Shown piece by piece: positions 958-16,347 of a stretch of DNA of 64,000 nt (positions are counted from its first letter, which is position 1; each line of letters begins with the position of its first letter). Position numbers and translations under genes: made by a program. Source of the stretch: a virus. Under the pieces are notes generated by a model. It saw only the letters and a list, made by a program, of their open reading frames with translations, was not told the DNA's origin and searched no databases. The stretch lies in IMG/VR virus record IMGVR_UViG_3300035681_000018, positions 6,616 through 70,615 of that record. One strand, 5' to 3'.

Positions 958-961
958 AGAT

Positions 962-1454: not shown

Positions 1455-1702
1455 TTGGCTTTTCACTTGAATTCAAACGCTGGTACTTTGTACTGCGTGG
1501 CCCCAAGGGTCGAGTGTACTTGGCAACTGGCTTTGCTAAATGCATGCCAGTTTTTGCGAATGGACGCAGTGTCAGTCTTCACGATATCATTAACGATGAT
1601 GACGTGAAATACGGTACTTATTGCTGCGACCAACGCATTGGTCCATGGGAAGGTGATGAGACTGACGAAGAACTTTTGCGTCAGTTAAAAGAGATCCGCT
1701 AA
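1451..1702 (+). CDS. hypothetical protein
   Basis: 83-aa ORF, ATGA overlap. Confidence 0.6.
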   Translation: MIGFSLEFKRWYFVLRGPKGRVYLATGFAKCMPVFANGRSVSLHDIINDDDVKYGTYCCDQRIGPWEGDETDEELLRQLKEIR

Positions 1703-1707
1703 TCAAC

Positions 1708-1735
1708 CGTCCTGGGCATGACGTTAAACTGCCTA
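1708..1735 (+). ncRNA. H-type pseudoknot motif A, copy 1
   Basis: CGTC-C-TGGGCA-T-GACG-TTAAAC-TGCCTA. Confidence 0.75.
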
Positions 1736-1760
1736 TACTCAACTCAACTCCAACCTCATC

Positions 1761-3476
1761 ATGTATTTCCATCTCCCCTCCAGCCTGCAACAAGAACTCT
1801 TGGCTTATGATCCAAAGCTCAAGGCTTTGGTCAAAGAGCAAGAACCTAAGAAGTCTACGAAGAAAGCTAAGTATCCACTGGGTAATATCCCACATCTCAT
1901 CCCTGAGAATGTGATACGTGCTGGCTATCAACAAGATGCGATTGATCGCATCAATGCATCAGGTGTATCTGAGCGTTATCACCGCTTTACCAAGGTAGTT
2001 GATATTGCTACACCACAAGCACGTACGATTACCATTGCAGTTCTCTATCACTTCGAGCAATGCTGGTATGCCGCATGGTTACCTGCCAAGGGAGAGGACT
2101 ATCTCTATGGCTATGCCTTTGCATTCAAGAATACTGCTGCTGCAGCTAAAATGTTGCCTCGCCGTATTTGGGAAAGTAAAGATCAATGCACTGAACACAC
2201 CATTGGTCGTGGCTCACAGACCTTTACATACTCACGTACTATAACCAAGGAAGATGTTATTGCTGGTAATGATGCACGCAACTGGCGTGCCATGGGTATT
2301 GCTAGTTATTATCAGAAGTCACGTGATATGAATGATGCAATCAATAGCTTTGAGAAAACTTTGATGGAAACATTTCCAACATGGGACGATTGTCGTTCTA
2401 TGTTTGAGCGCATCAAATGTAATAACTTTCTTGATGCACTTGAGTTTCCATCTGCATTAACAAACTGCATTGAAGATCGTTCAGCGTTTAAGTTAACGGT
2501 TGATGGTATGGTCAACCTTGCTAATGCATGGACAGCTAAGAATAACTATGTATCTACAACCTACATAACCATACAGAATATTGAACACATTATTACTACA
2601 CCTTCTATCAAGAAACAACTTCAACTTATGCTTGACAAATCTGTAGCTGAATACAATAACCCTGAGAACAATCAGCGCAAGGCAGTCAAGTATGGCTACA
2701 AAGAGTTTGAGCAAACGACAAACTCTATCTACTTCATTAATCGTGTATGGCCTGATTGCCCACTTGATCACTACCGTACATACTTTGAAGAACTGCGTAT
2801 TGTTAATCTCAATCATCTACGTACCAATGATGCTTTGCTTACTTGGCTACGTGAGCACATGTCTGTTACATCATTCCTCAATATGATGCGCAAGCATGTT
2901 GAGAAAACAAATGAAGAGACTCGTCGGATCTCTTCTCTATCTGATCATGACTTTATTATCCATGCATGGTATGAGATGAATGACACATTCTCAATGCTAA
3001 TGCGTATCTTTGAGAACGGCAAGACTATCGAAGCACCTAAACGTTGGCGCATGCCTGACTTCCATGATTATGTGCAAGCAGAAGCATGGAAGATAGCTAA
3101 CAAGAAGGAATCATTGCACCAGGATTTATTCCCTACACCTGTCAAGGTCAACATGGGTGACAGTGACTGGACATTCCTCCAACCCATTGACACCCATCAG
3201 CTAGCGCAATGGGGCCAAGCTGTTCGTAACTGTGTTGGCTCTGCGTCCCAGTATGCAGAGGACATCAAGAAACGTAAGCACTTCATTGTGCTTTGTATGA
3301 TTGATGGCAAGCCAACCTTCACCATCCAACTGGATGTATCCATGGGTGTGATGAATGTCAAGCAGATTGCTGGCGTCGGCAACCAGCGATTGGACGACGA
3401 TCAGAAGGAGAAGTACTCCAATGCATTCAAACTGGCCTTGCAATTTCGCAATGATGAGCTAAGCTCTAAGAGCTGA
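1761..3476 (+). CDS. PcfJ-domain-containing protein
   Basis: C-terminal LAQWGQAVRNCVGS..Y...FTIQL..VKQIAGVGN signature. Confidence 0.7.
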   Translation: MYFHLPSSLQQELLAYDPKLKALVKEQEPKKSTKKAKYPLGNIPHLIPENVIRAGYQQDAIDRINASGVSERYHRFTKVVDIATPQARTITIAVLYHFEQCWYAAWLPAKGEDYLYGYAFAFKNTAAAAKMLPRRIWESKDQCTEHTIGRGSQTFTYSRTITKEDVIAGNDARNWRAMGIASYYQKSRDMNDAINSFEKTLMETFPTWDDCRSMFERIKCNNFLDALEFPSALTNCIEDRSAFKLTVDGMVNLANAWTAKNNYVSTTYITIQNIEHIITTPSIKKQLQLMLDKSVAEYNNPENNQRKAVKYGYKEFEQTTNSIYFINRVWPDCPLDHYRTYFEELRIVNLNHLRTNDALLTWLREHMSVTSFLNMMRKHVEKTNEETRRISSLSDHDFIIHAWYEMNDTFSMLMRIFENGKTIEAPKRWRMPDFHDYVQAEAWKIANKKESLHQDLFPTPVKVNMGDSDWTFLQPIDTHQLAQWGQAVRNCVGSASQYAEDIKKRKHFIVLCMIDGKPTFTIQLDVSMGVMNVKQIAGVGNQRLDDDQKEKYSNAFKLALQFRNDELSSKS

Positions 3477-3485
3477 AGCCACAGC

Positions 3486-3521
3486 AGGGGCATCCTATCC
3501 TCGTAAATGGGATGCCTCTTT
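3486..3521 (+). terminator. putative intrinsic terminator
   Basis: AGGGGCATCCTAT/ATGGGATGCCTCT stem followed by a short T run. Confidence 0.5.
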
Positions 3522-3525
3522 ACCT

Positions 3526-3735
3526 ATGGACTACACCGATGATCAGCTCCTTGCCATGGCCATGGCTAACATTGGTGAATACATCACGGACAACTCACCA
3601 CAGTACATCCTGATTGAAGACGATCCTCGTAATGAGGATGACTATGATAGCTGGACTTACGGAATGGAAGTCCTACCTCAAGACCACACTTGGCAGTCAG
3701 ATTCAATTGACGTAAGTCCAAGTGAGGCCGACTAG
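3526..3735 (+). CDS. hypothetical acidic protein
   Basis: 69-aa ORF; stop codon lies inside the tRNA 5' end. Confidence 0.55.
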   Translation: MDYTDDQLLAMAMANIGEYITDNSPQYILIEDDPRNEDDYDSWTYGMEVLPQDHTWQSDSIDVSPSEAD

Positions 3736-3801
3736 CCCAACGGCAGAGGCAAGCGACTTAAAATCGCTACAGTCCCGGTTCGAATCCGAGGTCGGCTACC
3801 A
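3726..3801 (+). tRNA. trnL: tRNA-Leu(UAA), short variable loop, encoded CCA
   Basis: Acceptor GGCCGAC/GTCGGCT, anticodon arm AGCGA-CTTAAAA-TCGCT, T-loop TTCGAAT, ends ACCA. Confidence 0.85.
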
Positions 3802-3824
3802 ACTCAACACATTACACCACAACA

Positions 3825-4184
3825 ATGGACATCATTCGTTCGATCAAGTGCCTTATTCCTGAGTTTCATGCATTTAGTGCTGAAGACAGGGGCTATCACG
3901 TTGGTGCTACCTGGACTGACGACCAGGGGTTGCGTGACTATCACAACGTTGAACTCAAGTACACACGGAACTCAGAACGCCTAGCTCTCCAGGGTAAGCA
4001 ACAGCCTGATGGCAGCTGGCTTTACATTGAACCCAATGGTCGTTGCCATGTCATGTCAGCAGAACGTGCTGCTCACTTCATGGCACAGGCACAAGCACAA
4101 GCTGCGATCCTAGAGCAAATGTTACAGAACATGAACACGGATGGAGGCGATGGAGTGGTAGACACCACTGCCATAACTGTGTAA
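3825..4184 (+). CDS. hypothetical protein
   Basis: 119-aa ORF. Confidence 0.7.
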   Translation: MDIIRSIKCLIPEFHAFSAEDRGYHVGATWTDDQGLRDYHNVELKYTRNSERLALQGKQQPDGSWLYIEPNGRCHVMSAERAAHFMAQAQAQAAILEQMLQNMNTDGGDGVVDTTAITV

Positions 4185-4236
4185 GATCATCTAGCCAAGG
4201 ACTACTCAGCCCCTGCGTAAGCGGGGGCCTTCCTTC

Positions 4237-4557
4237 ATGACAAACGATTCTATTGATCTTGACCTTGTTGATCAAACGATTGCACTGATACCAGAGCAAG
4301 CATGGACTCAAGTGAGACAAGCAATTGTTACAGCCTTAGTTGATAACATGCCTGGCTTTGCACTTGAGAAGTTGACAGGTACTTATGATGGCTTCGATCG
4401 TGCAGAAGAAATTCTGTATGACTACTATCAACTTCCTGATTTAAAACAAGATCTTATTGTTGATGCATTCAAAATTATGGGTGCAATCAATTGTCTTGAA
4501 CTACTCAGCTCATTGAATCTTACTGAAGATGAATTGCAGACAATGCAACAGCAGTAA
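4237..4557 (+). CDS. hypothetical protein
   Basis: 106-aa ORF. Confidence 0.7.
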   Translation: MTNDSIDLDLVDQTIALIPEQAWTQVRQAIVTALVDNMPGFALEKLTGTYDGFDRAEEILYDYYQLPDLKQDLIVDAFKIMGAINCLELLSSLNLTEDELQTMQQQ

Positions 4558-4864
4558 CACACGCGTTACTTGTACTGAACATCTAGGATCTGATGTAACC
4601 AAACGTTATTGTCGTTGTCTTGATTGTGGTTGCAAGTACCGTACTGTTGAACGGTATGAAGTTGCTAAACCAATTCCATTGAAAGCCTACAAACCTATTG
4701 GTACCAGGAATGGAAACTCTTTCTTGACTGATAATGATGTGTTGATGATTCGTCATCTACATCAGAAAGGATTGAGCAATGGTCAGATAGCAATACGCTA
4801 TGACACTGCTCGCAGTACAATCTCACGTATTGTCAACTACAAAACTTACACCAACATCAAATGA
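4529..4864 (+). CDS. Zn-ribbon (NrdR/Ogr-like) plus HTH DNA-binding protein
   Basis: CxxC...RYCRCLDCGCKYRTVE and C-terminal LSNGQIAIRYDTARSTISRIV HTH. Confidence 0.65.
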   Translation: MNCRQCNSSNTRVTCTEHLGSDVTKRYCRCLDCGCKYRTVERYEVAKPIPLKAYKPIGTRNGNSFLTDNDVLMIRHLHQKGLSNGQIAIRYDTARSTISRIVNYKTYTNIK

Positions 4865-5187
4865 CACAACAACACCCCATCACCCCACCGTCGGAGCTGG
4901 TAGAGCAGTGGGCACATTTGACTGCCGATTGGAATACGGTTGCTCCCTTTATTGCCCAATGGGGCGCCGACCAAGAGCTAGAGGCGTGCTGTGAGTGGGT
5001 GGATTGGAAGTGGTCGGGAATCAAGAGCAGGGAACTCCGCGCCACACGCCGGCCCAAGCCACCGAGCTTGAAGGAGCAGGCGTTACAAGCACTTGCTGAA
5101 GCTGACGCTGGCCTAACAGAATTGGAGTGGCCTCAATGTTCCGACACCATCCGCCGCGCCCTTGAACAACTTCCCGACAACAACTAA
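4861..5187 (+). CDS. paralog family 'WGADQELEACC', copy 1
   Basis: Shares blocks with 5497-5826 and 6811-7149. Confidence 0.75.
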   Translation: MTQQHPITPPSELVEQWAHLTADWNTVAPFIAQWGADQELEACCEWVDWKWSGIKSRELRATRRPKPPSLKEQALQALAEADAGLTELEWPQCSDTIRRALEQLPDNN

Positions 5188-5195
5188 TTATTACA

Positions 5196-5495
5196 ATGAC
5201 AACCAAGCGACAGTTTGATTACAAGATTGGTGACCGTGTTGCTGAACGTCCCAAACCCCATGGGATCTACACAAACAACCAACAAACAAGAGAACGCATC
5301 TCTCAGTACAGGAGCCAGCGGTACGGTGAAGTGGTTGGCATCAACTACAAAAACAACTCACGTGGTGCTACCCAAAAGTTCTTGCTTGTTCGTTGGGATC
5401 ATTTACCTAGCCCAACTGAACATGCCACTGCACGCATCTGTCCTGTGTCAGCACTAGAACGTCTGACCAAAGAAGTCCTTGTCCCTGGTGAATAA
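5196..5495 (+). CDS. hypothetical protein, possible SH3/KOW-like fold
   Basis: YKIGDRV...GEVVGI...LVRWD pattern. Confidence 0.6.
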   Translation: MTTKRQFDYKIGDRVAERPKPHGIYTNNQQTRERISQYRSQRYGEVVGINYKNNSRGATQKFLLVRWDHLPSPTEHATARICPVSALERLTKEVLVPGE

Positions 5496-5496
5496 C

Positions 5497-5826
5497 ATGA
5501 CACAAGAAAACCCAATTACTCCTTCGACTGAGTTGGTGCAGCAGTGGGTTGACACTTACTTTGGTGGCAAAATTTCACAGTCCAATTTTCATCTAGACCT
5601 TGCCACCCGCGCTGCCCAATGGGGTGCAGACCAGGAGCTGAAGGCGTGCTGTGATTGGCTTAGTGTTCCTTGCCCCAGTTACGGACGTGAACTTCGCAAT
5701 GCTCGCCGCCCCGAGTTGCTAAGTTTAAAAGAAAGAGGATTGAAAGCTCTTCTGGAATGTTACAGATATATTCCAGATGATTTGTATGGTGAAATTACAG
5801 AAGCAATTGAATCTTTGCCTGATTGA
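5497..5826 (+). CDS. paralog family 'WGADQELEACC', copy 2
   Basis: MTQENPITP...WGADQELKACCDW...RRPELLSLKE. Confidence 0.75.
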   Translation: MTQENPITPSTELVQQWVDTYFGGKISQSNFHLDLATRAAQWGADQELKACCDWLSVPCPSYGRELRNARRPELLSLKERGLKALLECYRYIPDDLYGEITEAIESLPD

Positions 5827-5827
5827 C

Positions 5828-6037
5828 ATGACTGAAAATCACATTCAATTCCTTCGTGGTTGTTGCGCAACAATCCTTGCGTTTGCAGCTACTGGTTTAA
5901 TCGCTGCAATCTTTTTGTCACCTGATCAACCTAAGAACAACTCTAAGTTTGAAGTCCTTGATCAGTACGAAGGTTGTTCAGTAATCCGTTACACTGATCC
6001 CACATCTCGCTGGCATTACTTCCTTAAGTGCTCATGA
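5828..6037 (+). CDS. small membrane-anchored protein
   Basis: N-terminal hydrophobic helix, FEVLDQYEGC motif. Confidence 0.6.
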   Translation: MTENHIQFLRGCCATILAFAATGLIAAIFLSPDQPKNNSKFEVLDQYEGCSVIRYTDPTSRWHYFLKCS

Positions 6038-6675
6038 ACGTACAACTTGTTTGGGCAACGCCCAATGCAGAAGAGATGATCACGCGCATGGCACGCGTCT
6101 CTGCACCCAAGAATCAAGACAACATGGATACCGCACCCAAGTTGTTGCGTTATCTGATTAAACATCAGCACTGGTCACCGTACGAGATGGCCAACATGTG
6201 TGTTGAAATCAACACAACACGTGCAATCTCACCGCAAATACTTAGGCATCGTTCATTCTCGTTCCAGGAATTCAGTCAACGTTACGCAGATACCAGTGAA
6301 CTTGGCTCAGCTGTTATTCCTCATCTGCGTCGACAAGACTTTAAGAATCGTCAAAACAGTATTGATGATTTGTCTGCTGATGCAATCAGTAGTTATTACC
6401 GCCGCATTAGCAAGTTGTATGAAGACGCTGAACATCTCTACCGCGAGATGGTTAGCAGCGGCGTTGCAAAAGAATGTGCCAGGTTCATCCTGCCACTTTC
6501 AACACAGACCCGTCTCTTCATGAACGGCACCATCAGATCTTGGATCCATTATCTACAACTGCGGACACATGAATCAACCCAACTCGAACACAGAGAAATT
6601 GCAGAAGCAATCAAAGGAATCTTCTGCAAAGAATTCCCAATCATCGGAGAGGCTGTGTTCTCAACAGATCAATGA
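6034..6675 (+). CDS. thyX: FAD-dependent thymidylate synthase
   Basis: RHRSFSFQEFSQRY ThyX motif, HWSPYE, AKECARFILP. Confidence 0.95.
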   Translation: MNVQLVWATPNAEEMITRMARVSAPKNQDNMDTAPKLLRYLIKHQHWSPYEMANMCVEINTTRAISPQILRHRSFSFQEFSQRYADTSELGSAVIPHLRRQDFKNRQNSIDDLSADAISSYYRRISKLYEDAEHLYREMVSSGVAKECARFILPLSTQTRLFMNGTIRSWIHYLQLRTHESTQLEHREIAEAIKGIFCKEFPIIGEAVFSTDQ

Positions 6676-6810
6676 TCTGATTGAGAGATATAAAGAACCA
6701 GAGCAAGCACGCCAGTTTCTTATGGAAGCTGGCATCATTGATGAGAATGGAGACCTCATGCCTCCATATCAAAACACCTCAACGTAAGTAACTATTACCA
6801 CTAATCACCC

Positions 6811-7149
6811 ATGACACAACAACATCCCATTGTCCCACCACCGGACAAAATCCACAACTGGCTCCAGTCAGAAAAGATTGGCTGCACCATCGAGCAAATT
6901 ATTACTGCGGCTGCCCAATGGGGCAGCGACCAAGAGCTAGAAGCGTGCTGTGATTGGATTAACTCATTCCAAAACAAATTTGTTCATGCCCATGATCTTC
7001 GTCTTGTTCGCCGCCCCAAGCCGCCGAGCTTGAAGGAGCAGGCGCTTGAGCAGTTGGATGGAATTGCAGCCGTATTCCGAGTGTCTCACGGTGGCGATCT
7101 CGTGTGCGACAAAATCCGCCGCGCACTGGAGGCCCTACCCAATGACTGA
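6811..7149 (+). CDS. paralog family 'WGADQELEACC', copy 3
   Basis: MTQQHPIVPP...WGSDQELEACC...RRPKPPSLKEQAL...IRRALEALP. Confidence 0.75.
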   Translation: MTQQHPIVPPPDKIHNWLQSEKIGCTIEQIITAAAQWGSDQELEACCDWINSFQNKFVHAHDLRLVRRPKPPSLKEQALEQLDGIAAVFRVSHGGDLVCDKIRRALEALPND

Positions 7150-7372
7150 CCTTTCCCCCGCCGCACAGTATATAGTTAACGCAGCGGTTGAATCCGGTGG
7201 TGGATACGGACGTGCCACGCCAGTACTACACGCACGTCTTGCCGCCGCCCTGCGAGCTGCTGCAGAGCAGATTGAAAACCTGTACTGCGATGGCGATGTG
7301 GAAGACAGTCCTGGCATCGTGTTCGCCTTGCGTCAATTAATGCTTATTGCCAACGAGCTTGAAGCCCAGTAG
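7142..7372 (+). CDS. hypothetical protein (MTDLSPAAQ...AAALRAAA type)
   Basis: ATG overlapping previous gene end. Confidence 0.65.
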   Translation: MTDLSPAAQYIVNAAVESGGGYGRATPVLHARLAAALRAAAEQIENLYCDGDVEDSPGIVFALRQLMLIANELEAQ

Positions 7373-7381
7373 TCACCTTCA

Positions 7382-7498
7382 CTAAAAGGTTGCAGCACTT
7401 TGCTTCTTCAGTTCTGTGACGGCATGCTTGGACTCCACATCTTTGCGTGCCAGCTTTTTCTTTTTGTCCACCAGGTAAACGATCAGTGCCTTGTTCAT
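7382..7498 (-). CDS. 38-aa basic peptide
   Basis: MNKALIVYLVDKKKKLARK...; ATGA-coupled to the DUF4278-like gene; not in ORF track. Confidence 0.5.
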   Translation of the reverse strand: MNKALIVYLVDKKKKLARKDVESKHAVTELKKQSAATF

Positions 7499-7647
7499 TT
7501 GATTTGTCCTCCAGTGACGTAAGGAAAGTAGCAGATGTTACGGTAGGTCAGGCAAAGCCATGGACGGTGTGCTAAGTTCCACCATGCCTTGTCTGTCTTG
7601 GCCTGATCTTCTTGGTTGTATTTGCAACCACGATACGTTAACGTCAT
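7495..7647 (-). CDS. DUF4278-like protein
   Basis: MTLTYRGCKY N-terminus and a second LTYR motif. Confidence 0.65.
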   Translation of the reverse strand: MTLTYRGCKYNQEDQAKTDKAWWNLAHRPWLCLTYRNICYFPYVTGGQIK

Positions 7648-7654
7648 GGCTTTA

Positions 7655-7668
7655 GTATCTATTGATAC
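7655..7668 (-). promoter_or_regulatory. NtcA box just downstream of a TATACT -10 element (7673-7678, -)
   Basis: GTATCAATAGATAC = GTA-N8-TAC, palindromic GTATC-N4-GATAC. Confidence 0.6.
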
Positions 7669-7721
7669 GGAAAGTATATGATGATTGATGTATATGATGT
7701 AGTTCACCCAGTAACACAACC

Positions 7722-7913
7722 ATGATCTCTATTTCAGAAACCTGCAAAGAGTTCAACAAGGCAATGGGTATCAAAGGAAGGTTTTTCCTTTTTGTCCTTG
7801 GTTTTATTGGGCTATTGTTTCCAGGTTGGGTAGCCTATGTTGTTCTCTCTGGGCTTGCTAAATGCACAGAAGATAAAAATATGTATGCACTTTTAAAACA
7901 ACTTGCAGACTAA
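7722..7913 (+). CDS. small membrane protein
   Basis: Hydrophobic central segment. Confidence 0.55.
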   Translation: MISISETCKEFNKAMGIKGRFFLFVLGFIGLLFPGWVAYVVLSGLAKCTEDKNMYALLKQLAD

Positions 7914-7915
7914 CA

Positions 7916-8104
7916 ATGTCTTTTCTTTTGGCTCGTGTCACAGATGAATCTGATCTTCCAGATGATTACTATGCATTTGTCCAACAGTTTACATATTGGC
8001 AAGGAAGCTACGCTTCTCAACTTGATACAGAATCATTGATGATCTTGCTATGGCAAATGGACAAACGTATTAAAGAACTTGAGGCAAATCAAAGTAATCT
8101 GTAA
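7916..8104 (+). CDS. hypothetical protein
   Basis: 62-aa ORF in tight operon. Confidence 0.55.
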   Translation: MSFLLARVTDESDLPDDYYAFVQQFTYWQGSYASQLDTESLMILLWQMDKRIKELEANQSNL

Positions 8105-8400
8105 TGAAAGGATTTAGCTCCACCAAACAACACACACGTTCATCTAGTTATTGGGTTGCTTCCTACACAAAAGACAATCAGGATGAACCACTTGGCATTC
8201 ACAAGAAAGTCTTGTCCTATAAACCAGGGCAAGATAAAGAAGTCTTGATGACAAACTATTGCAACTCCATTATGAAAATCAACAGAAACATATGGGAGAT
8301 CTTGGTGCACCAAGGTCCATCTGAGGTCCCAGACTCAGGTGATCAGATCGTGATTCGTTTATCACGTGAGCCTTTCAAAGGCTGTAGTCAACTGCAATAA
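8104..8400 (+). CDS. hypothetical protein
   Basis: 98-aa ORF, TAATG coupling. Confidence 0.6.
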   Translation: MKGFSSTKQHTRSSSYWVASYTKDNQDEPLGIHKKVLSYKPGQDKEVLMTNYCNSIMKINRNIWEILVHQGPSEVPDSGDQIVIRLSREPFKGCSQLQ

Positions 8401-8479
8401 TCCCGAACGGGAAGATGGACCTGAGCACGTCCTTAAACTACTCATTAGTTTTTATTATCATTCAACTCAACTCAACACC

Positions 8480-9238: not shown

Positions 9239-9285
9239 TTATCACGATAAGACCTGGTACCATATGCCTGGTCTTATCCTGCTCA

Positions 9286-9519
9286 ATGGCTTACATCATT
9301 AGTACGTTGGTGGATGGTGTGCCACACGCCATCCATGCCAATAGTTCCGACTCCAAGTTTGAACTGTTAGCTTTGGATTCTGCTAGTTCACTTAGTAGAA
9401 TTTACTCCCATCCTTATCGGGCTGGTGCTTATCAAGTTCTAAGTTGGATCCTGGACAATGAACCCACACTCTCCTGTTATGAGCTCCAGGTTTCCGATGA
9501 AGCCCGGTTCCAAAAATGA
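9286..9519 (+). CDS. hypothetical protein
   Basis: 77-aa ORF preceded by a hairpin at ~9247-9277. Confidence 0.6.
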   Translation: MAYIISTLVDGVPHAIHANSSDSKFELLALDSASSLSRIYSHPYRAGAYQVLSWILDNEPTLSCYELQVSDEARFQK

Positions 9520-11320
9520 ATCTTGGTTAGTCTTTGATATTGAAACCGATGGCCTCTACGATAAAGTCACGAAAGTTTTTTGTATTGTTATCTACGATAT
9601 CAACCGAGAAGAAACTTTTGCTTATGGGCCTGATCGCATTGATGATGCTCTTGCTCATCTGGCAACCGGTGATGTACTTATTGGTCACAATGTGATCTTC
9701 TACGACGTACCGGTTCTGCAAAAACTACATTCATTCAACTGCAAAGCACGCATCCTTGACACACTCATCTGCACACGACTCATCTGGCCCAAGGAAAAAC
9801 TCTACGACCTTGACGTACAACTCTATCCGGAAGTTCCGAAGAACTACCGCGGGATGGCCGGTCTTAAAGCCTGGGGTTACCGCCTCTCCGATAACAAGAT
9901 TGAGTTCAAAGATTTCTCAGAGTACTCAGAAGAAATGCTTGTCTATTGCAAGCAAGACGTCTCGGTTACTTCAAAACTTTGGAGGCATATCGCCAACCAA
10001 GGTTATCCAGAGCAGGCTCTCAAACTTGAACACGACTTTGCTCTTGCCATTAATAAGCAAATTAGAGCAGGTGTTCCTTTTGATGTGGATGCAGCTATTG
10101 ATCTTGTGGATAATCTCCGAGCAAGAGAAGCACAGCTTGAAGCGGAACTAAAAGAAATTTTTCCGCCAATCGAACATCGCAATTGGTTTACTCCTAAGGT
10201 CAACAATAAAAATCGTGGCTATGTCAAAGGAGTACCTTTTGAAAAGATCCATTACGAAGAATTCAATCCTGGATCTCGTGATCAAATTGCTGATCGACTC
10301 AAGGCTAAGTACGGATGGCAACCAGAAAAGACAACTGAAAAAGGAAATCCAATCCTTAATGATGAAGTGTTAGAGGCATTGCCTTACCCAGAAGCCAAGC
10401 CTCTGGCAGAATACATGCTCATCAAGAAACGCCTTGGTCAAATTGCAGATGGCAACAACGCTTGGCTCAAGCTGGTTAATAATGATAGCAGTCGTATGCA
10501 CGGTGACGTTGTTACTAACGGCTGCGTCACTGGTCGTTGTGCTCACCGATACCCAAATATGGGTCAGGTGCCAGCGGGCTATTCGCCATATGGCAAAGAA
10601 TGTCGTTCTTTATTTCATGCACCACAAGGATGGGACATGATTGGTATTGATGCCAAAGCATTGGAGCTACGGTGTCTTGCTGGTTACCTTGCCATCTATG
10701 ACGGTGGTGAGTATGCACGTGTCGTCACTGATCCAACAATTGACATTCACGTGTACAACCAAGAGCGTTTTGGTGTGGCTACCAGGGACATCAGTAAACG
10801 TTTACTGTATGCCGTGTTGTATGGCGCTGGTCACCTCAAGGCTGGCAGCATTGTGGATCCGAATGAAAAAGATGAAGAAGTTCTGCGTAAACTAGGAAGA
10901 ACTGCAATAAATTCATTCATGGCTGAGGTGCCAGCCTTGAAAGAACTTAAGGAACGTATTGAATCTCAGATTGCAAACAATGATTGTCTCATTGGATTAG
11001 ATCGCCGTATTCTTTATTGTCGTTCGGCATTCAAAGGATTGAATGTTTTATTGCAATCAGCAGGTGCAATCCTCATGAAGCAAGTTGTTATTAACATTCA
11101 TGACAACATTGAGTCTGCCCTCACTCTGCCCCATGGGGCAGAGTGGGAACAAGTCTTGATGGTTCATGACGAAGTGCAACTGGTTTGTAGTCCCAAACAC
11201 ACTGAACAGATCAGAGCCCAAGCGTTGGCAGCTTTCCCACAAGCACAGCAATTCTTTGGATTTCTCTGTGACATCGAGGGAGATTCTCGTGTAGGATCCA
11301 ACTGGAGCCAAACGCACTAA
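9497..11320 (+). CDS. polA: DNA polymerase family A (T7-like) with 3'-5' exonuclease
   Basis: FDIETDG ExoI, GHNVIFYD ExoII, DAKALELR motif A, KRLLYAVLYG motif B, VHDE motif C. Confidence 0.95.
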   Translation: MKPGSKNESWLVFDIETDGLYDKVTKVFCIVIYDINREETFAYGPDRIDDALAHLATGDVLIGHNVIFYDVPVLQKLHSFNCKARILDTLICTRLIWPKEKLYDLDVQLYPEVPKNYRGMAGLKAWGYRLSDNKIEFKDFSEYSEEMLVYCKQDVSVTSKLWRHIANQGYPEQALKLEHDFALAINKQIRAGVPFDVDAAIDLVDNLRAREAQLEAELKEIFPPIEHRNWFTPKVNNKNRGYVKGVPFEKIHYEEFNPGSRDQIADRLKAKYGWQPEKTTEKGNPILNDEVLEALPYPEAKPLAEYMLIKKRLGQIADGNNAWLKLVNNDSSRMHGDVVTNGCVTGRCAHRYPNMGQVPAGYSPYGKECRSLFHAPQGWDMIGIDAKALELRCLAGYLAIYDGGEYARVVTDPTIDIHVYNQERFGVATRDISKRLLYAVLYGAGHLKAGSIVDPNEKDEEVLRKLGRTAINSFMAEVPALKELKERIESQIANNDCLIGLDRRILYCRSAFKGLNVLLQSAGAILMKQVVINIHDNIESALTLPHGAEWEQVLMVHDEVQLVCSPKHTEQIRAQALAAFPQAQQFFGFLCDIEGDSRVGSNWSQTH

Positions 11321-11322
11321 CC

Positions 11323-11517
11323 ATGGAATTAGGAACAAAGGAACTAGAAACAAAAAGGTTCATTCAAGTAAAGCCAACAACTTTAAAAGTTGTTTGCCCT
11401 ATACATGGAGAACATGATCAATATATTAAAAGCACAATCGAAGGTCATGAAGGTTATTGGTGCATGATCTGTTGGCTTGAAAGCCTTGGCGATCCAATCC
11501 CAACTATTAAAGAATGA
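11323..11517 (+). CDS. small Zn-finger-like protein
   Basis: CPIHG...WCMICW. Confidence 0.55.
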   Translation: MELGTKELETKRFIQVKPTTLKVVCPIHGEHDQYIKSTIEGHEGYWCMICWLESLGDPIPTIKE

Positions 11518-11522
11518 TTTCT

Positions 11523-11550
11523 CGTCCTAAGTATGACGCTAAACTACTTA
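11523..11550 (+). ncRNA. H-type pseudoknot motif A, copy 2
   Basis: CGTC-C-TAAGTA-T-GACG-CTAAAC-TACTTA. Confidence 0.75.
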
Positions 11551-11569
11551 TCACCTACTGTTTGAACAC

Positions 11570-12370
11570 ATGAACTTTGTTACAGTTTGCGCTCAACTCA
11601 ACGACACACCTCGCGAAGTTTATACTTCTGCCACGTCAAGCAACTATGTTGCAGAGGTAATGCTTCCTCCTGTAGGAAAAAATAAATCTGCAACATCTCT
11701 TGCTCTTCATGTTTACGGCAAGGCTGCTGAGAAATTCAGGATGCTTGATCGTGGTGCTCGTCTGTATGTACACGGTTCAAAGATCCGTTACGACATTGAT
11801 GCCAAGGCATACTCACTGCACGGCGGTGTTATTGCAGTTGTTAATGATTCGTTTCCAATCTTTAACGATGTGATTCTTACTGGTCGTTGCATTAAAGACA
11901 TCGATCAAGAAGATGCACGTGCGTTCAAGACAACACCAGATGGTTTGATGATTGCCAATCAAACCATCTCAGTTAATACTGGTCGGAACCAAGGAGACTT
12001 GTTCAACTTCTATGCAATTAATAGCAAGGATGACAAGTTAAATAACGCTGAGTTGATGGTCAACTTTACGCGGAAAGGAACTGGGCTTACTATCCGTGGC
12101 CGTCTTGTTACCGATGCATGGACTGATAAAGAAACGCAACAACGCCGGACACTGACCAAGATCCAGCTTGTGCAGATGACCTTGGCGCCAAAGCCTGGCG
12201 TCAACGAGCCAAAGCCCGTAGCGTCCCAGACGACGGTTGCTTCCTCTGATAATGTTGCTACACTGTGGGGCGGCAAGACTGCCGAAGACTCCTTCAGTCA
12301 AGGGCTGCCTGATCTCCCTGGTCAGTATGGACCAGCTCCTGAGCCTACTCCTGAATTCATTCCGTTCTGA
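11570..12370 (+). CDS. ssb: single-stranded DNA-binding protein with two tandem OB folds
   Basis: NDVILTGR, KGTGLTIRGRLVTDAWTDKET; C-terminal IPF tail; N-half also SSB-like. Confidence 0.75.
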   Translation: MNFVTVCAQLNDTPREVYTSATSSNYVAEVMLPPVGKNKSATSLALHVYGKAAEKFRMLDRGARLYVHGSKIRYDIDAKAYSLHGGVIAVVNDSFPIFNDVILTGRCIKDIDQEDARAFKTTPDGLMIANQTISVNTGRNQGDLFNFYAINSKDDKLNNAELMVNFTRKGTGLTIRGRLVTDAWTDKETQQRRTLTKIQLVQMTLAPKPGVNEPKPVASQTTVASSDNVATLWGGKTAEDSFSQGLPDLPGQYGPAPEPTPEFIPF

Positions 12371-12373
12371 TTC

Positions 12374-12604
12374 ATGCCTCTTCAACTTGATTTACAAGAA
12401 CAAGATCTTCTTTCTTTAGAAGACGCTATTGCGTACGAATTTTTTATGGAGAGTGCATACGAAATTATGCACAGTGCTAATGAAAAGGATTTAGACATTG
12501 CTGAACAAGTTGCAAAACTTGCTACAGCCTCCTATCTAATTGCGCACATTTTTTGCGAAGCACGTTTAGTTAACTCACAACAAACTAATGACACCGACGC
12601 ATGA
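12374..12604 (+). CDS. hypothetical protein
   Basis: 76-aa ORF. Confidence 0.6.
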   Translation: MPLQLDLQEQDLLSLEDAIAYEFFMESAYEIMHSANEKDLDIAEQVAKLATASYLIAHIFCEARLVNSQQTNDTDA

Positions 12605-12827
12605 TCAGTTCACTCTCCTCTATGAGGATGAGCACACTAAACTTCTGTATGAATTCAAAGCTCTTGTTGCTGACGATGTAATCAATCACCTTGTGGATTT
12701 CCTCAAGGGTTGTGGCTACATGGAAAGCAGCATCTTTGAGTGCATGAAAGAATCTTCTGAGGCGTATTTCGATTCATTAAGTACTCAGCAGTACGTAATG
12801 AAATGGGACAAGCCTGATCCAGAATAA
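12588..12827 (+). CDS. hypothetical phage protein
   Basis: YEF.A...DFLKGCGY motif. Confidence 0.65.
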   Translation: MTPTHDQFTLLYEDEHTKLLYEFKALVADDVINHLVDFLKGCGYMESSIFECMKESSEAYFDSLSTQQYVMKWDKPDPE

Positions 12828-12832
12828 GGATC

Positions 12833-12860
12833 CGTCCTGAGCATGACGTTAAACTGCTCA
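12833..12860 (+). ncRNA. H-type pseudoknot motif A, copy 3
   Basis: CGTC-C-TGAGCA-T-GACG-TTAAAC-TGCTCA. Confidence 0.75.
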
Positions 12861-12880
12861 CTCCTGACTACGAAACAACC

Positions 12881-13897
12881 ATGACTGCTTCCATGACCAC
12901 CAAGAAAACTTCTGCGCTTACATCCAGGGGACTTGATTCCTTTAAGCTTTTTCAATCCAAAGAATTTGTTTCGGGTTACCAAAACCTTGTCACAATCCAA
13001 CCTCTCAACAAGTCCAAGACACGAGGTTGGTTCGTGCGGAAGTCAGATCTGGACACTTGTGGATGGAGTGCCACTGAAGATCAGTTTGCTAAAGATTCAG
13101 TTATCTGGAACTACAAGCAAACTTTTGGTATGGCTCCCAACACTTCAGTTGAAGAAGGACTCAATTTTGTTGAGCCTCGAGTTCAAATCCTTTTACGTTC
13201 TCCCCTCATGGTTGAGGAAACCACAGGGATGAGGCAAACGATCGGAACCTTTGAAGATCCAGAGGTGAAGATCATGTTTGAAAACGACAAGATTGCATCC
13301 GACCTTGCCAACAGCAAGGGCGAGATGTACAAGCGTAAGTACAGTGTACGTACAAAGTACCTGGTGTACATCCTGACCCAGGACAACAAGCGTGCTCATA
13401 AGATCCCCATGGTGCTAACACTCAAGGGTCTTAACGGCACTGATGTTTCCGACAAGGTCAAACTGTACGAAAAGGAAATGTCTAAGTGCCTGAGCAAGGC
13501 ACTGGACTCTGAGGTACCGCTGGCATTCAACGAGAAGTTCTACGCCACTACGGTGTTTACTCCCGTCCTTGCCAACGAAATGCGTGGCGCCAACAACGTA
13601 GAGATTTGCGCCATCGAATCTTTTGACATCCCTGACTACAGCTCCCAAGAGGAAGCGGTTGCATCATTGGGCCGTCTTTCGATTCCTGATGAAGATCGTG
13701 AATCGACTTGGAAGTACCAAGAGATGTTTAATGATTACATTAATCAACATTCTCGGCAAGATGCACAACGTCTTGGTGGTGCCTATGGAATCAAGGCTGG
13801 CGTTGAGATTCTTCCCGTCTCACGCATCGCAGATGCAGTTGATGTGAAAGCATTGCCTGCACGCAATGAACTAACCGGAGAAGATCTTAGCCTTTGA
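12881..13897 (+). CDS. conserved cyanobacterial/phage protein, DUF5895-like, possibly ssDNA binding or annealing
   Basis: PRVQILLRSPL, YLVYILTQDNKRAHKIPMVLTLKG; lies in replication module. Confidence 0.5.
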   Translation: MTASMTTKKTSALTSRGLDSFKLFQSKEFVSGYQNLVTIQPLNKSKTRGWFVRKSDLDTCGWSATEDQFAKDSVIWNYKQTFGMAPNTSVEEGLNFVEPRVQILLRSPLMVEETTGMRQTIGTFEDPEVKIMFENDKIASDLANSKGEMYKRKYSVRTKYLVYILTQDNKRAHKIPMVLTLKGLNGTDVSDKVKLYEKEMSKCLSKALDSEVPLAFNEKFYATTVFTPVLANEMRGANNVEICAIESFDIPDYSSQEEAVASLGRLSIPDEDRESTWKYQEMFNDYINQHSRQDAQRLGGAYGIKAGVEILPVSRIADAVDVKALPARNELTGEDLSL

Positions 13898-14126
13898 GGC
13901 GGTTCAAGATGTCATGGTCAACTTGATTACTCATCAAGTCCATGGCATCCTTTACTAATCCTTTAATAGCAACTTGACGCATCGTGGCGATCTTCGTTAG
14001 TAAGGTCGCCATTTCTTTTAGCTCACTCATTGAACTGCATTCTTTAATGGAACGTATCATCTTCTCTTGCCAGAAGGCTTCTTCTGGCCCCATTTCAAAT
14101 TGCAACATGGGATTCAATTGTTTCAA
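13887..14126 (-). CDS. NblA-like protein (divergent)
   Basis: MGPEEAFWQEKMIRSI...ELKEMATLL...RQVAIKGLV two-helix pattern; alternative start ATG 14108. Confidence 0.45.
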   Translation of the reverse strand: MKQLNPMLQFEMGPEEAFWQEKMIRSIKECSSMSELKEMATLLTKIATMRQVAIKGLVKDAMDLMSNQVDHDILNRLKG

Positions 14127-14186
14127 CGTATTATAACTACGACGTAAACTTAATTAAACCTTTCGTTTGTGTTAGGGATTCAACAC

Positions 14187-14375
14187 ATGAAACCAGAAGA
14201 CAAAGCTGCTCTTACCGTTGGTGCTCAAACTGCATTGGTGACAGCCGCTGCTGCTATCCTTCTGCCCAACCCAGTCTCCTGGGCGGCTGCTATAGTGGCA
14301 ACGTACCGCATGGCCAAGCGTGCTCGCATCCAATCTCTGATTGACCAAGGGCAAGCCAAGTACTGGAGGGGGTAA
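14187..14375 (+). CDS. small hydrophobic protein
   Basis: 62-aa ORF with Ala-rich helix. Confidence 0.55.
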   Translation: MKPEDKAALTVGAQTALVTAAAAILLPNPVSWAAAIVATYRMAKRARIQSLIDQGQAKYWRG

Positions 14376-14411
14376 CCACCTGGTACAACACACCAACTCA
14401 ATTCAAATCAA

Positions 14412-15344
14412 ATGCAAACACAAGTTGAGCTTAATGCAGCGCAAGCTGCAATCTATACACGCACAAATCTCTCGCGTGCCTTTCAGGACTTTGATGACAC
14501 CGACATTGGTGGCATCTATTTGCGAGGCGATGATTGTCTTGTGGTGCGTCGCGATGGTAGCGAGCAAGCTTACAACAGGGAACTAATCAAGACTTTCTTT
14601 AACACTTACACCCACCGTCTTAAAGATTTCTTTTCCTATCTTGGTCCCAATTATCGTGGCCCTAGTGTATGGCACAACAATGCTTACATTCTTTTTAAGG
14701 GCTGGAACTACTCGCACTCGCTCGGACATCTAAGTTCTAATGCAAAACTACAAGCGCACTGGGCTGACAAATTTATACATGTATCAAACACCGACAAAGT
14801 CTTGCACCTCCTCCAGTCCGATCAAACGGATATTGGACATTTGGTTGCGCCAGACGGATTGCGGCTTCCGAATCGGCCCATTGACATTGACGGTGACATG
14901 GAAGCTGACGACTCCGAGCCTGTCATGGGTGAACCTTGGTGTTCGTGTGGGTCGTATCAGCGTCAGCTCAGCAACGTATCTGACTTTGCGGCCGAGATCG
15001 AAGGATTCAAACCCTGGTGCATCCACCTGAGTTGGTTCAATAAGTACCGTGAGCTGCTGTGCAAGCGCACCGAAGCACGGAATGCCAGCCCCAGTGGTAC
15101 ACCTGAGAAGTGTGTTGCTTGGTGGTACGCACCACCCGCTGACCACATCAGTGATGGACGCTTTGTATTGTTGTATACAAATTCAGGAGCACAAGCTCCG
15201 CTGACACATTGGCGTACCTACAAACCGAAGGAGATCTTTACGCAGTATGATGCATGGGATCTGTTTTTCAATATGATGGAGGCTGGGTATGTACCATTTC
15301 CTGGTACTGCCTTGCCACAACTCAAGTCTGCTATCAAAAAATGA
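14412..15344 (+). CDS. SWIM-type Zn-finger protein
   Basis: WCSCGSY...WCIHL (CxC...CxH). Confidence 0.65.
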   Translation: MQTQVELNAAQAAIYTRTNLSRAFQDFDDTDIGGIYLRGDDCLVVRRDGSEQAYNRELIKTFFNTYTHRLKDFFSYLGPNYRGPSVWHNNAYILFKGWNYSHSLGHLSSNAKLQAHWADKFIHVSNTDKVLHLLQSDQTDIGHLVAPDGLRLPNRPIDIDGDMEADDSEPVMGEPWCSCGSYQRQLSNVSDFAAEIEGFKPWCIHLSWFNKYRELLCKRTEARNASPSGTPEKCVAWWYAPPADHISDGRFVLLYTNSGAQAPLTHWRTYKPKEIFTQYDAWDLFFNMMEAGYVPFPGTALPQLKSAIKK

Positions 15345-15571
15345 AGGAGGCAATCATTGAAGTCAGCCATGACATTCTTGAATACGCACGTCAACTTGCA
15401 ACTCAACCTCTCATGACAAAACCTACGCGTTACGATCTCGATCTCCCAGAAGACACACACTGGGAGCTTGTAAAGTTAGCTGCTGAACTTAAGATGCATC
15501 ATGAAGACTACGCACTAAACGTACTAATTGGTCATGTCGAATCTGAGTTGGATCGAAAAGTTCAAGCTTGA
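15341..15571 (+). CDS. ribbon-helix-helix-like protein
   Basis: RYDLDLPEDTHWELVKLAAE pattern. Confidence 0.5.
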   Translation: MKEAIIEVSHDILEYARQLATQPLMTKPTRYDLDLPEDTHWELVKLAAELKMHHEDYALNVLIGHVESELDRKVQA

Positions 15572-15752
15572 ATGCATTGACGAAGAGGATGGCACCATGA
15601 CTATCCACATCGAGTGGGATGAGAATGATCCTGAACTTGCCTATTGGACTTCTTTGGGTCCACAAGGTCAAGAAGAATTTATTTTGACTGCACTACGAGA
15701 GGCTTGTGCCCCTTACACTGACACCGAAGTTTTTGATGATCATGTCGATTGA
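15534..15752 (+). CDS. hypothetical protein
   Basis: EDGTMTIHIEWDENDP motif. Confidence 0.6.
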   Translation: MSNLSWIEKFKLECIDEEDGTMTIHIEWDENDPELAYWTSLGPQGQEEFILTALREACAPYTDTEVFDDHVD

Positions 15753-16158
15753 CACCTACGGCCTTTCTTCTGAGCAGTACACCGAGTTCTTCCACAAGAA
15801 CATCCGTGCTGCTGCCAAGCTTTACCTTGATACCTGCAACATTTTGAGCAGCGAAGGGGTCGGCAATGTTGACTTCAAAACTGTCTCAGAGATGTATCAA
15901 GAAGCTGTGTACACTACCAATGATGATTGCCGTCGTTACCAAAAGAGTAACAATCCTAACGCATTGAAAGAAAACGATGTGTATGGTATGGTTCCTTCTC
16001 ACCAAGAAATCATTGATATGATTGAAACTTTGGTGACATACACTGAAGCTCTTGACGCCAAGCTCCAGGCGCTAACCGACTACGTCAGTAATCTGGTCAC
16101 GATTACCACGGCAGGTCTCGAAGGGATCGCTACAACTCTTGACGATACGGTAGACTGA
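15742..16158 (+). CDS. hypothetical protein with C-terminal coiled coil
   Basis: 138-aa ORF. Confidence 0.65.
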   Translation: MSIDTYGLSSEQYTEFFHKNIRAAAKLYLDTCNILSSEGVGNVDFKTVSEMYQEAVYTTNDDCRRYQKSNNPNALKENDVYGMVPSHQEIIDMIETLVTYTEALDAKLQALTDYVSNLVTITTAGLEGIATTLDDTVD

Positions 16159-16183
16159 GCACGCATAAACCCTGCAGGGTTGC

Positions 16184-16211
16184 CGTCCTGGTCATGACGT
16201 AAAACTGACCA
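16184..16211 (+). ncRNA. H-type pseudoknot motif A, copy 4
   Basis: CGTC-C-TGGTCA-T-GACG-TAAAAC-TGACCA. Confidence 0.75.
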
Positions 16212-16230
16212 CCTATCTCAACACCACACC

Positions 16231-16344
16231 ATGTTTGAATCTTTGTTTGCCGCCGTACTTCCGGTGATGAAAGACTTGCTTTGGGCAGCGGCTGGCATAG
16301 CGTTGACCTATCTCTTCAACAAGTTTCAAACTCAATTCAACTGA
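16231..16344 (+). CDS. 37-aa membrane peptide
   Basis: MFESLFAAVLPVMKDLLWAAAGIALTYLFNKFQTQFN; 19 nt after pseudoknot; not in ORF track. Confidence 0.6.
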   Translation: MFESLFAAVLPVMKDLLWAAAGIALTYLFNKFQTQFN

Positions 16345-16347
16345 ACC

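Follow-up and report, generated by a model that had tools for sequence, protein, structure and literature searches.

Results

Positions and gene neighborhoods in the window

The window analyzed here is a 64,000-nt stretch of the IMG/VR record IMGVR_UViG_3300035681_000018 (record positions 6,616 to 70,615). It contains five copies of a 28-nt motif with a predicted pseudoknot fold, here called the knot, in front of genes coding for a PcfJ-like protein, a GP88-family protein, a single-strand-binding protein (SSB), a DUF5895 protein and, behind a small open reading frame (ORF), Sipho_Gp157. The features are given below in window coordinates, with model scores in bits:

1708-1735, + strand: knot copy 1 (48.7 bits), 5 nt past the stop of the ORF at 1451-1702 and 25 nt before the PcfJ-like gene at 1761-3476
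8401-8412, + strand: short hairpin UCCCG..CGGGA, located after the stop codon at 8398-8400 and ending 4 nt short of copy 5
8417-8444, + strand: knot copy 5 (13.4 bits), added in this analysis, 35 nt before the GP88-family gene at 8480-9238
11523-11550, + strand: knot copy 2 (44.9 bits), 5 nt past the stop of the ORF at 11323-11517 and 19 nt before the SSB gene at 11570-12370
12833-12860, + strand: knot copy 3 (52.2 bits), 5 nt past the stop of the ORF at 12588-12827 and 20 nt before the DUF5895 gene at 12881-13897
16168-16181, + strand: hairpin AACCC-UGCA-GGGUU, 2 nt 5' of copy 4
16184-16211, + strand: knot copy 4 (44.1 bits), 25 nt past a stop with the hairpin between, and 19 nt before a 37-aa hydrophobic ORF at 16231-16344
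16348-17067: Sipho_Gp157 gene, directly after the 37-aa ORF
1736-1760, 8445-8479, 11551-11569, 12861-12880 and 16212-16230, + strand: knot-to-start spacers, G-poor and without a Shine-Dalgarno word

Copies 1 to 4 had been described in a first-pass annotation of this DNA, and all four were recovered at exactly the positions given there, on the + strand. They are the only error-free matches to the pattern CGTCC-N6-TGACG in the window; the full 70,615-base record has four forward and no reverse matches, and none to a backwards-read control pattern. The annotation had, however, missed copy 5, which has GGAC/GUCC in place of both strands of the usual stem 1, a C at the junction and one C.A in stem 2 (UGAGCA/UACUCA). 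Its score is low because the model treats stem 1 as sequence. The GGAC/GUCC form of stem 1 also occurs in four relatives, and the hairpin before copy 5 is the same in four relatives, while the hairpin before copy 4 is kept in relatives with different letters. The reported distance of 19-25 nt between knot and AUG, the lack of a Shine-Dalgarno sequence in the spacers and the identity of the downstream genes, including the peptide followed by Gp157, were all borne out. Four other genes in the window have the same CA-rich leader and no knot.

Pairing and covariation

In copy 1, stem 1 is CGUC/GACG, loop 1 is C, stem 2 is UGGGCA/UGCCUA, the junction base is U and loop 3 is UUAAAC. The two hexamers of stem 2 always pair in copies 1 to 4, as had been claimed, with one G.U in copy 1 and Watson-Crick pairs throughout in the others. 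The family consensus comprises a stem 1 of 4 bp, mostly NGUC/GACN, an invariant C as loop 1, a stem 2 of 5-6 bp (URRNYA/URNYYA), a single base, mostly U, at the junction of the stems, and a loop 3 of N-W-A-A-A-C; the loop letters are near-invariant across the family.

Covariation was assessed in 125 distinct instances, which were picked on letters outside the variable stem-2 positions. Among these, 93.6% of the cells pair versus 83.7% after shuffling, a value that none of 500 shuffles reached, and when partners are slid out of register only 16-51% of the cells pair. Stem 1 covaries as well, which goes beyond the earlier claim of a covarying stem 2: with its letters left unconstrained, 14 of 21 instances in which the common stem-1 letters are absent pair at all four positions. 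G.U pairs make up 74 of 1250 cells, where the other strand would show A.C mismatches, and in five genomes all 32 copies lie on one strand per genome; together, these two observations point to RNA. A descriptor of the motif matched 229 times in the real loci and not once in a block-shuffled control of all loci, and this control and the pairing in the wider family exclude a chance origin. Nested folding of each lone 28-mer gives only one stem at once (-2.7 to -5.6 kcal/mol), with z-scores of -0.7 to -1.9 that are not significant. Since each stem is weak by this measure, the support for the knot is comparative rather than thermodynamic. On these comparative grounds, there is good support for predicting that the motif folds into an H-type RNA pseudoknot of 28 nt in the sense strand of phage mRNAs, and the annotation's description of such knots in gene leaders stands.

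Occurrence in other phages

The 28-nt layout is not confined to the window, itself DNA of a cyanophage. S-EIV1-like cyanophages share it, as do many unrelated phages; at least 115 IMG/VR stretches carry it and so do 59 from bacterial and archaeal assemblies, and the letters of loops and junctions are conserved across phyla. Genomes carry 4-9 copies before many genes, and in cyanophages the copies are restricted to one replication and recombination module of 10-17 kb. All of the 20 SSB-anchored relatives, with protein identities as low as 52%, have a knot 19-20 nt ahead of the SSB gene. Within the DNA fetched, 118 of the 174 knot-bearing loci have no protein in common with the window. Downstream genes are diverse and have no metabolic theme; they include HNH endonucleases, many unknown genes and scaffold genes (GP20/PF06810; 4 + 2 of 129 downstream proteins). 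In Enterococcus prophages, the knots precede Phage_scaffold genes, and Firmicutes prophages with strong Shine-Dalgarno sites retain the same letters. The many loci without a shared protein and the variety of downstream genes indicate that the knot is independent of the proteins of any one phage, and the proposal of the first-pass annotation that an RNA regulon is read by this phage's own SSB is weakened accordingly.

Spacing at gene boundaries

Knots occupy gene junctions without overlapping stop and start codons. The stop-to-knot spacing, measured over 261 instances, is 4 nt in 4, 5 nt in 70, 6 nt in 26, 7 nt in 16 and 8 nt in 10 of them; fewer than 4 nt were found in just 9 of the 261, and the lengths show no 3-nt periodicity. 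Positions -5 to -1 before the knot hold only 0.04-0.16 bits of information, so the 5-nt wall does not stem from unrecognized motif letters. On the other side, the distance to the ATG has a sharp onset at 19 nt (18 nt, n=4; 19 nt, n=26; 20 nt, n=36). Knots rarely end closer to the start codon than 19 nt, and the whole range in the family is -1 to 189 nt. The family's knot-to-start spacers contain 9.2% G versus 22.4% in the background, and an SD-like 4-mer is present in 31 of 193 leaders. These walls are compatible with every function for which the knot has to be folded.

A long upstream ORF ending 4-12 nt ahead of the knot is missing in 132 instances; 68 of these have a hairpin of -5 kcal/mol or lower ending at most 8 nt before it, several with U-tracts like those of intrinsic terminators. 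For 30 of the 261 copies, there is no ATG-started ORF of at least 35 codons within 200 nt. One copy is embedded in an array of phage tRNAs, just 2 nt ahead of one of them, and the knot can thus occur away from any start codon.

Recoding knots are placed 5-8 nt after the A-site codon, a spacing seen after the stop codon in 122 of the 261 instances. The compact triplex knots of luteovirus frameshift sites and exonuclease-resistant viral RNAs are of similar size and share the loop-1 C, one junction base and a loop 3 rich in A; a ring-like three-way junction is absent from the knot. Ahead of the stops of copies 1-3 there is no slippery heptamer. In copies 1 and 2, the downstream gene is in the +1 frame with respect to the upstream ORF, and this frame contains the UGA and UAA conserved in the knot, which excludes a frameshift or readthrough fusion at these two copies.

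Comparison with Rfam families

An Rfam search returned no family for the knot, and the window copies match nothing at E values up to 10, GP20-b (RF03003) included. The first module of GP20-b, in which GUC is followed by a 5-bp stem with CA at its end and then by G-C-G, UAAAA and the return strand, resembles the knot below the cut-off and, judged by its letters, apparently has the same fold. Enterococcus prophage copies score 17.8-25.5 bits against GP20-b, under its gathering cut-off of 36.2. GP20-b, a candidate cis-regulatory motif, is located ahead of phage scaffold (GP20) genes, unlike the window copies with their PcfJ, GP88, SSB, DUF5895 and Gp157 genes. It continues with a second hairpin module, followed by UAAAAA, which we found in locus L142, whereas the G-poor window spacers of 19-35 nt have none; in the model line shown for GP20-b, the pseudoknot is not included. 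An excerpt of PMC10690425 mentions GP20-b in passing only, and the term GP20 is absent from the main text of PMC5737381. The large knot family has no entry of its own in Rfam, and the likeness to GP20-b tempers the novelty claimed for it in the first-pass annotation.

Discussion

The first-pass annotation had named four candidate functions with no preference among them, an RNA regulon, a decay block, a translational enhancer and a small riboswitch, and had likened the knot to the pseudoknot in the leader of T-even gene 32, which in phage T2 has a one-base loop 1. We consider this leader an apt working analogy, with no sequence likeness seen. Both the T4 gene 32 leader and the knot before the SSB gene combine an H-type pseudoknot with an unstructured tract that extends to the ribosome site. 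According to an excerpt of PMC3014915, RNase E processes the T4 mRNA at -71, with the pseudoknot about 67 nt ahead of the start; the RNA upstream of the cut is quickly degraded, and the processed message is very stable, the most stable one of T4. The T4 cut thus falls 4 nt before its knot. The two systems differ in that the T4 operator is specific to its own mRNA, while the window has five copies before five different genes.

We tentatively propose, with a probability of about 0.35, that the knot is a self-contained fold at cistron boundaries, which caps and stabilizes the downstream mRNA. A knot at selected boundaries would stay folded while ribosomes work on either side, with the upstream ribosome halting at least 5 nt short of it and the downstream initiating ribosome placed at least 19 nt beyond. 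Cleavage by a host endonuclease would take place in the short unpaired stretch 5' of the knot or, alternatively, 5'-to-3' decay, by the exonuclease RNase J or by RNase E acting from the 5' end, would run into the knot. The capped downstream cistron, here SSB, PcfJ, GP88, DUF5895 or Gp157, would outlive the upstream RNA; in Firmicutes prophages, the scaffold genes would be the capped cistrons. The knot may also be linked to hosts that carry RNase J. A role as a 5' boundary is supported by the covarying stems, the spacing walls, the abutting hairpins and terminators, the tRNA-array copy, the independence from any one phage's proteins and the T4 precedent. Other points speak against it. Given the weak stems, a strong mechanical block is not self-evident, and a simple hairpin would suffice for capping, which leaves about ten near-invariant loop and junction letters unexplained. 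In addition, the confinement of the cyanophage copies to one module is more suggestive of a regulon than of mRNA protection in general. One might go further and speculate that the knot stops 5'-to-3' decay on its own, with no protein involved, as a prokaryotic-virus counterpart of the exonuclease-resistant RNAs of eukaryotic viruses, that it splits polycistronic messages by lifetime in phages of many bacterial phyla and that it is maybe kin to the pistol scaffold; this bolder version we regard as rather unlikely.

The knot might instead act together with its unstructured, G-poor leader as a high-affinity landing site for S1 and the 30S subunit, promoting initiation on leaders that mostly lack Shine-Dalgarno sequences. 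The sharp onset 19 nt before the ATG and the absence of overlapping stop and start codons at knot junctions agree with such a standby site, and so does tisB, in which, according to an excerpt of PMC7708055, a 5' pseudoknot and an adjacent single-stranded region are jointly needed for S1/30S binding; S1 is described there as binding several pseudoknots. In tisB, however, about 100 nt separate the element from a ribosome site that is sequestered, the stems and loops differ in length from those of the knot, and the two are not related in sequence. We consider a standby function unlikely, as four window genes make do with the same CA-rich leader alone, the distance to the start varies widely across the family, one copy precedes a tRNA, 30 of 261 have no sizeable ATG-started ORF nearby, and the same letters occur in Firmicutes prophages having strong Shine-Dalgarno sites. 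A protein operator, on which the phage SSB, in the manner of T4 gene 32 autoregulation, or another factor would nucleate and then spread over the leader to repress a replication and recombination regulon, would account for the near-invariant loop letters, the confinement to one module and one strand and the constant position before SSB genes, and has a precedent in T4 gene 32 (excerpt of PMC3014915). The same knot nevertheless precedes scaffold, HNH endonuclease and many unknown genes, and most loci share no protein with the window phage within the DNA fetched. Moreover, the window SSB is a PF00436 OB-fold protein for which Pfam gives no match to a T4 gp32-type family, and its leader of about 20 nt is C/A-rich, whereas that of T4 is described in the same excerpt as A+U-rich with UUAA(A) repeats. 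An operator therefore seems quite unlikely to us.

A minimal catalytic or processing RNA, or the half of a pistol-like ribozyme that forms its scaffold, which cuts polycistronic RNA at the boundary is very improbable. Pistol ribozymes, frequent near phage genes, have a short P1 hairpin, a loop pseudoknot of about 6 bp and an A-rich linker (excerpt of PMC4604425), and the knot shares this 5' layout, with a P1-type hairpin whose 6-nt loop pairs downstream and with both stems covarying. A true pistol with the knot's AUAAAC linker was found in locus L145, 350 nt from the knot on that contig, and a RAGATH-1 hammerhead in L193, 620 nt from the knot. The knot, however, lacks the P2 and P3 stems and the two-base GU cleavage junction that pistol needs, its loop 3 has only 6 nt, no Rfam ribozyme model matches it, the Pistol model (RF02679), which detects the pistols of L145, included, and ribozymes were present in just 2 of 35 knot-bearing loci scanned. 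To our knowledge, 28 nt is well below the size of any self-cleaving class. A promoter of middle genes or a hairpin site in single-stranded DNA could explain a conserved motif with one orientation upstream of the genes of one module, but a signal at the DNA level is extremely improbable in view of the compensatory changes in two interleaved stems, the G.U cells, the exclusion zone after stops without letter conservation and the occurrence in phages of very different hosts; sigma-70-like matches were not enriched (23 found versus 32.0 expected). The small riboswitch envisaged in the first-pass annotation, taken as a sensor of a metabolite, is hardly credible. The preQ1-I riboswitch is of comparable size and has an A-rich loop 3, and the conserved loop and junction letters across phyla would speak for this reading; the diversity of downstream genes and the gap of at least 19 nt that usually separates knot and start nevertheless counter it, no terminator or SD-sequestering helix follows the knot, and no Rfam riboswitch matched at E values up to 10.

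Whatever the mechanism, the orphan Rfam motif GP20-b is tied by this work to a far wider class. If downstream messages indeed begin at the knot as a structured 5' boundary, a fold among the smallest conserved ones known in RNA would be a common punctuation of phage messages, in phages of cyanobacteria, Firmicutes, Saccharibacteria and beyond. This would account for expression of SSB or scaffold genes above that of their operon neighbors and would provide a portable part of 28 nt to insulate or stabilize mRNAs. The spacing rules, 5 nt after the stop and 19 nt before the start, would then be a direct genomic read-out of ribosome footprints.

Results

Four intergenic copies of a 28-nt H-type pseudoknot, each preceding a gene, had been described in the first-pass annotation, and their sequences and positions proved exactly right; Pfam bore out the genes assigned to them, and the peptide placed after copy 4 is a hydrophobic ORF that comes before the Gp157 gene. 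In the window, bases 6616-70615 of an IMG/VR virus record, CGTCC-N6-TGACG is matched without error four times, always on the + strand, and the whole 70,615-base record contains this pattern four times forward and never in reverse. A covariance model built from 125 members of the knot family, a check that the annotation had proposed, was run unfiltered over the whole record, where copies 1-4 score 44-52 bits and a weak fifth site (13.4 bits) appears at 8420-8447. Direct inspection of the sequence identified 8417-8444 as a complete copy, in which stem 1 reads GGAC/GUCC as opposed to CGUC/GACG, with two pairs flipped, the junction base is C and stem 2 contains one C.A.

Knot copies in the window and the ORF following copy 4
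1708-1735, +, copy 1, before the PcfJ gene
8417-8444, +, copy 5; a GP88-family gene begins 35 nt past it
11523-11550, +, copy 2, before the SSB gene
12833-12860, +, copy 3, before the DUF5895 gene
16184-16211, +, copy 4, before the peptide and Sipho_Gp157 genes
16231-16344, 37-aa hydrophobic ORF between copy 4 and the Gp157 gene

At the place matching this ORF, the annotation of Synechococcus phage S-EIV1 has a small CDS. Sigma-70-like sites are not enriched in the window (23 vs 32.0 expected), and no terminator-like sites were found at the window knots. A generic pseudoknot descriptor was non-specific, with 41 matches in the window vs 5-20 in shuffles; its extra match, at 3486-3514, is more plausibly a plain hairpin of 10 bp.

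The covariation claimed for stem 2 holds in an alignment of 125 distinct instances, picked by letters outside the variable stem-2 positions and not phylogenetically independent, in which 93.6% of cells pair vs 83.7% in shuffles (0 of 500 attain 93.6%). Pairing drops to 16-51% when the partners are slid, and changes on both sides are seen in five of the six pairs; the outermost pair of stem 2 is lacking in 39 of the 125 instances, and the outer pair of stem 1 is CG in 108, AU in 5, GC in 5 and UA in 4. For stem 1, 235 distinct instances were selected by stem 2 and loops only. NGUC/GACN is present in 214, and 14 of the other 21 still pair at all four positions with very different letters, for example GGAC/GUCC, ACAC/GUGU, CCUC/GAGG and UGUG/CACA. 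Because the pairing of both stems is kept and a block-shuffled control is empty (0 descriptor matches vs 229 in the real sequences), the fold is an H-type pseudoknot. Nested folding of single copies gave energies no better than shuffles, as expected for a knot of only 4 + 6 bp.

The closest named relative of the window, S-EIV1 (~72% identical in nucleotides across 48% of a 6.5-kb query), has seven knot copies, and at 20 of 20 loci anchored on SSB homologues (52-99% protein identity) a knot ends 19-20 nt before the SSB gene. In IMG/VR, at least 115 stretches contain an 18-letter pattern; among the 141 matches listed there, stem 2 pairs at 6/6 positions in 102 and at 5/6 in 26. In species-representative genomes the same pattern gave 59 stretches, titled Saccharibacteria (19), Firmicutes in the broad sense, with Mollicutes (27), and others (13); none of the 59 has a cyanobacterial title. 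At least 5/6 stem-2 positions pair in 57 of the 64 matches in these stretches, and six matches with three or fewer look like chance. The Firmicutes sites lie in prophage head modules upstream of scaffold genes. Genomes carry 4-9 copies, all within one 10-17 kb module. Within the DNA retrieved, 118 of 174 knot-bearing loci share no protein with the window, and most downstream proteins (129 representatives of 276) belong to no family, the remainder including PcfJ (10), SSB (6), scaffold (4 + 2), Gp157 (4), GP88 (2) and HNH (2). The knot is independent of the proteins of any single phage.

The knot occupies a conserved locus, possibly an integrated element, in contigs of Saccharibacteria that reach 900 kb; in one such contig (L141, knots at 4880 and 5460) a DUF7249 gene precedes one knot, and the other lies 5 nt past a terminator.

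The distances to the neighbouring reading frames are sharply bounded, as tallied on the stop side for 261 distinct instances.

Spacers on either side of the knot (cases)
Stop codon of the upstream ORF to knot: <4 nt, 9; 4 nt, 4; 5 nt, 70; 6 nt, 26; 7 nt, 16; 8 nt, 10
Knot to start codon: 18 nt, 4; 19 nt, 26; 20 nt, 36; 21 nt, 18; 22 nt, 26

The five bases between stop codon and knot carry near-zero information and are merely G-depleted. When a stop codon is in the A site, about five more bases occupy the entry channel of the ribosome, and the wall on the stop side therefore reads as a requirement that the knot escape unfolding by the terminating ribosome. On the start side, the wall stands at 19 nt and the tail reaches 189; these spacers contain 9.2% G vs 22.4% in the background, and 31 of 193 leaders have an SD-like word. 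In 132 of 285 instances the region 4-12 nt before the knot does not contain the end of a long upstream ORF, and in 68 of these 132 a stable hairpin, often with a U-tract, ends at most 8 nt before the knot. Window copies 4 and 5 are both of this hairpin-preceded kind.

Genes in the window that have no knot show the same G-poor leader, made of CAACUCAA-like words and adjoining the ATG (536-553, 1001-1017, 3802-3824 and 14376-14411), which seems to be this phage's general SD-less ribosome site. In two other intergenic gaps, 3477-3525 and 4185-4236, plain GC-rich hairpins precede short leaders; they represent a second type of boundary element within the same module.

A characterised Rfam family had been named as a threat to the novelty of the knot. 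The window copies match none: searches with the window at the gathering threshold and at E up to 10, and with a 76-nt piece, returned nothing on the knots but a meaningless 10-bit PYLIS_3 hit. Knots of Enterococcus prophages score 17.8-25.5 bits against GP20-b (RF03003), under its cut-off of 36.2, and the consensus of the first GP20-b module has the same layout as the knot. In Enterococcus prophages (L142, 175-250) the knot lies 3 nt past an intrinsic terminator and is followed by a second hairpin, whose UAAAAU tail adjoins the SD of a scaffold gene, and this tandem layout matches GP20-b. A sub-variant with UUAAAAG or UAAAAAG in loop 3 and a shifted stem 2 (L009 6849, L051 1158, L114 2152, L021 9805 and L005 6452) is nearer to the GP20-b consensus. 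BLAST of an Enterococcus leader found three Latilactobacillus phages as the only named phages, aligned over the coding part. GP20-b is an orphan motif: the accessible text of PMC10690425, a study with more than ten thousand candidate phage RNAs drawn from IMG/VR, gives just its name, and the term GP20 is absent from the main text of PMC5737381. Literature searches retrieved no description of the knot, which the supplementary lists of these two papers may include.

Thirteen sequencing runs match the window (shares 0.05-0.14), all as contigs, and are the basis for no habitat claim. Four were compared with window positions 1-20000. One 314-nt contig of an RNA library (X2, record 11) spans 11523-11836 and thus starts with the first base of copy 2, and its run has zero cover over the DNA polymerase gene directly upstream; a contig of another run (X5) departs from the window sequence immediately upstream of copy 3. 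Sites at which many molecules start or finish numbered zero in the comparison. De Bruijn contigs break at divergence between co-occurring strains and cannot show RNA ends, so the start of the X2 contig was discounted as an RNA 5' end at copy 2 and is not counted as evidence.

Two phage tRNA genes lie in the window:
3726-3801, +, tRNA-Leu(UAA)
21405-21481, -, tRNA-Pro(UGG)

Elsewhere, 20 tRNA genes form a phage array (L093, 1-2113), in which a hairpin and a knot with a weak stem 2 occupy the sole long spacer, between two tRNA-Ser genes, the knot lying 16 nt past one and 2 nt before the next. Ribozymes occur near knots in just 2 of 35 scanned loci (two pistol ribozymes, one RAGATH-1 hammerhead). 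Both pistols (L145, 2821-2883 and 5460-5530) begin directly after a stop codon and bracket a 2.5-kb ORF-poor stretch with a knot at 3230 inside, and a knot at 3913 stands one gene upstream of the hammerhead (L193, 4534-4620).

Discussion

The conserved RNA fold described here is flanked by exclusion zones the size of a ribosome and is often backed upstream by a hairpin. As G.U occurs in 74 of 1250 cells and all 32 knot copies in five genomes are on the gene strand, the sequences point to a knot that acts as RNA and not as DNA, and a signal at the DNA level is highly improbable. A riboswitch appears less probable still. Kinship with ribozymes would accord with the pistol ribozyme of L145, whose hairpin, loop-pseudoknot and AUAAAC follow the same layout as the knot; with ribozymes so rare near knots, we regard it as very unlikely.

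An operator bound by a protein, SSB or another, would suit the invariable knot before SSB homologues, and the knot also precedes many other genes in loci that share no protein with the window; we consider such an operator unlikely. Hardly less unlikely is a standby site for S1 or the 30S subunit, for which tisB is the precedent (accessible text of PMC7708055). The remaining probability is reserved for an explanation not yet conceived.

Tentatively, with a probability of about one in three, we propose that the knot gives the cistron behind it a protected 5' boundary. The model for this is the T4 gene 32 leader, in which, according to the accessible text of PMC3014915, RNase E cuts at -71 and a knot lies ~67 nt before the start, the upstream RNA is short-lived and the mRNA, once processed, is more stable than any other in T4.
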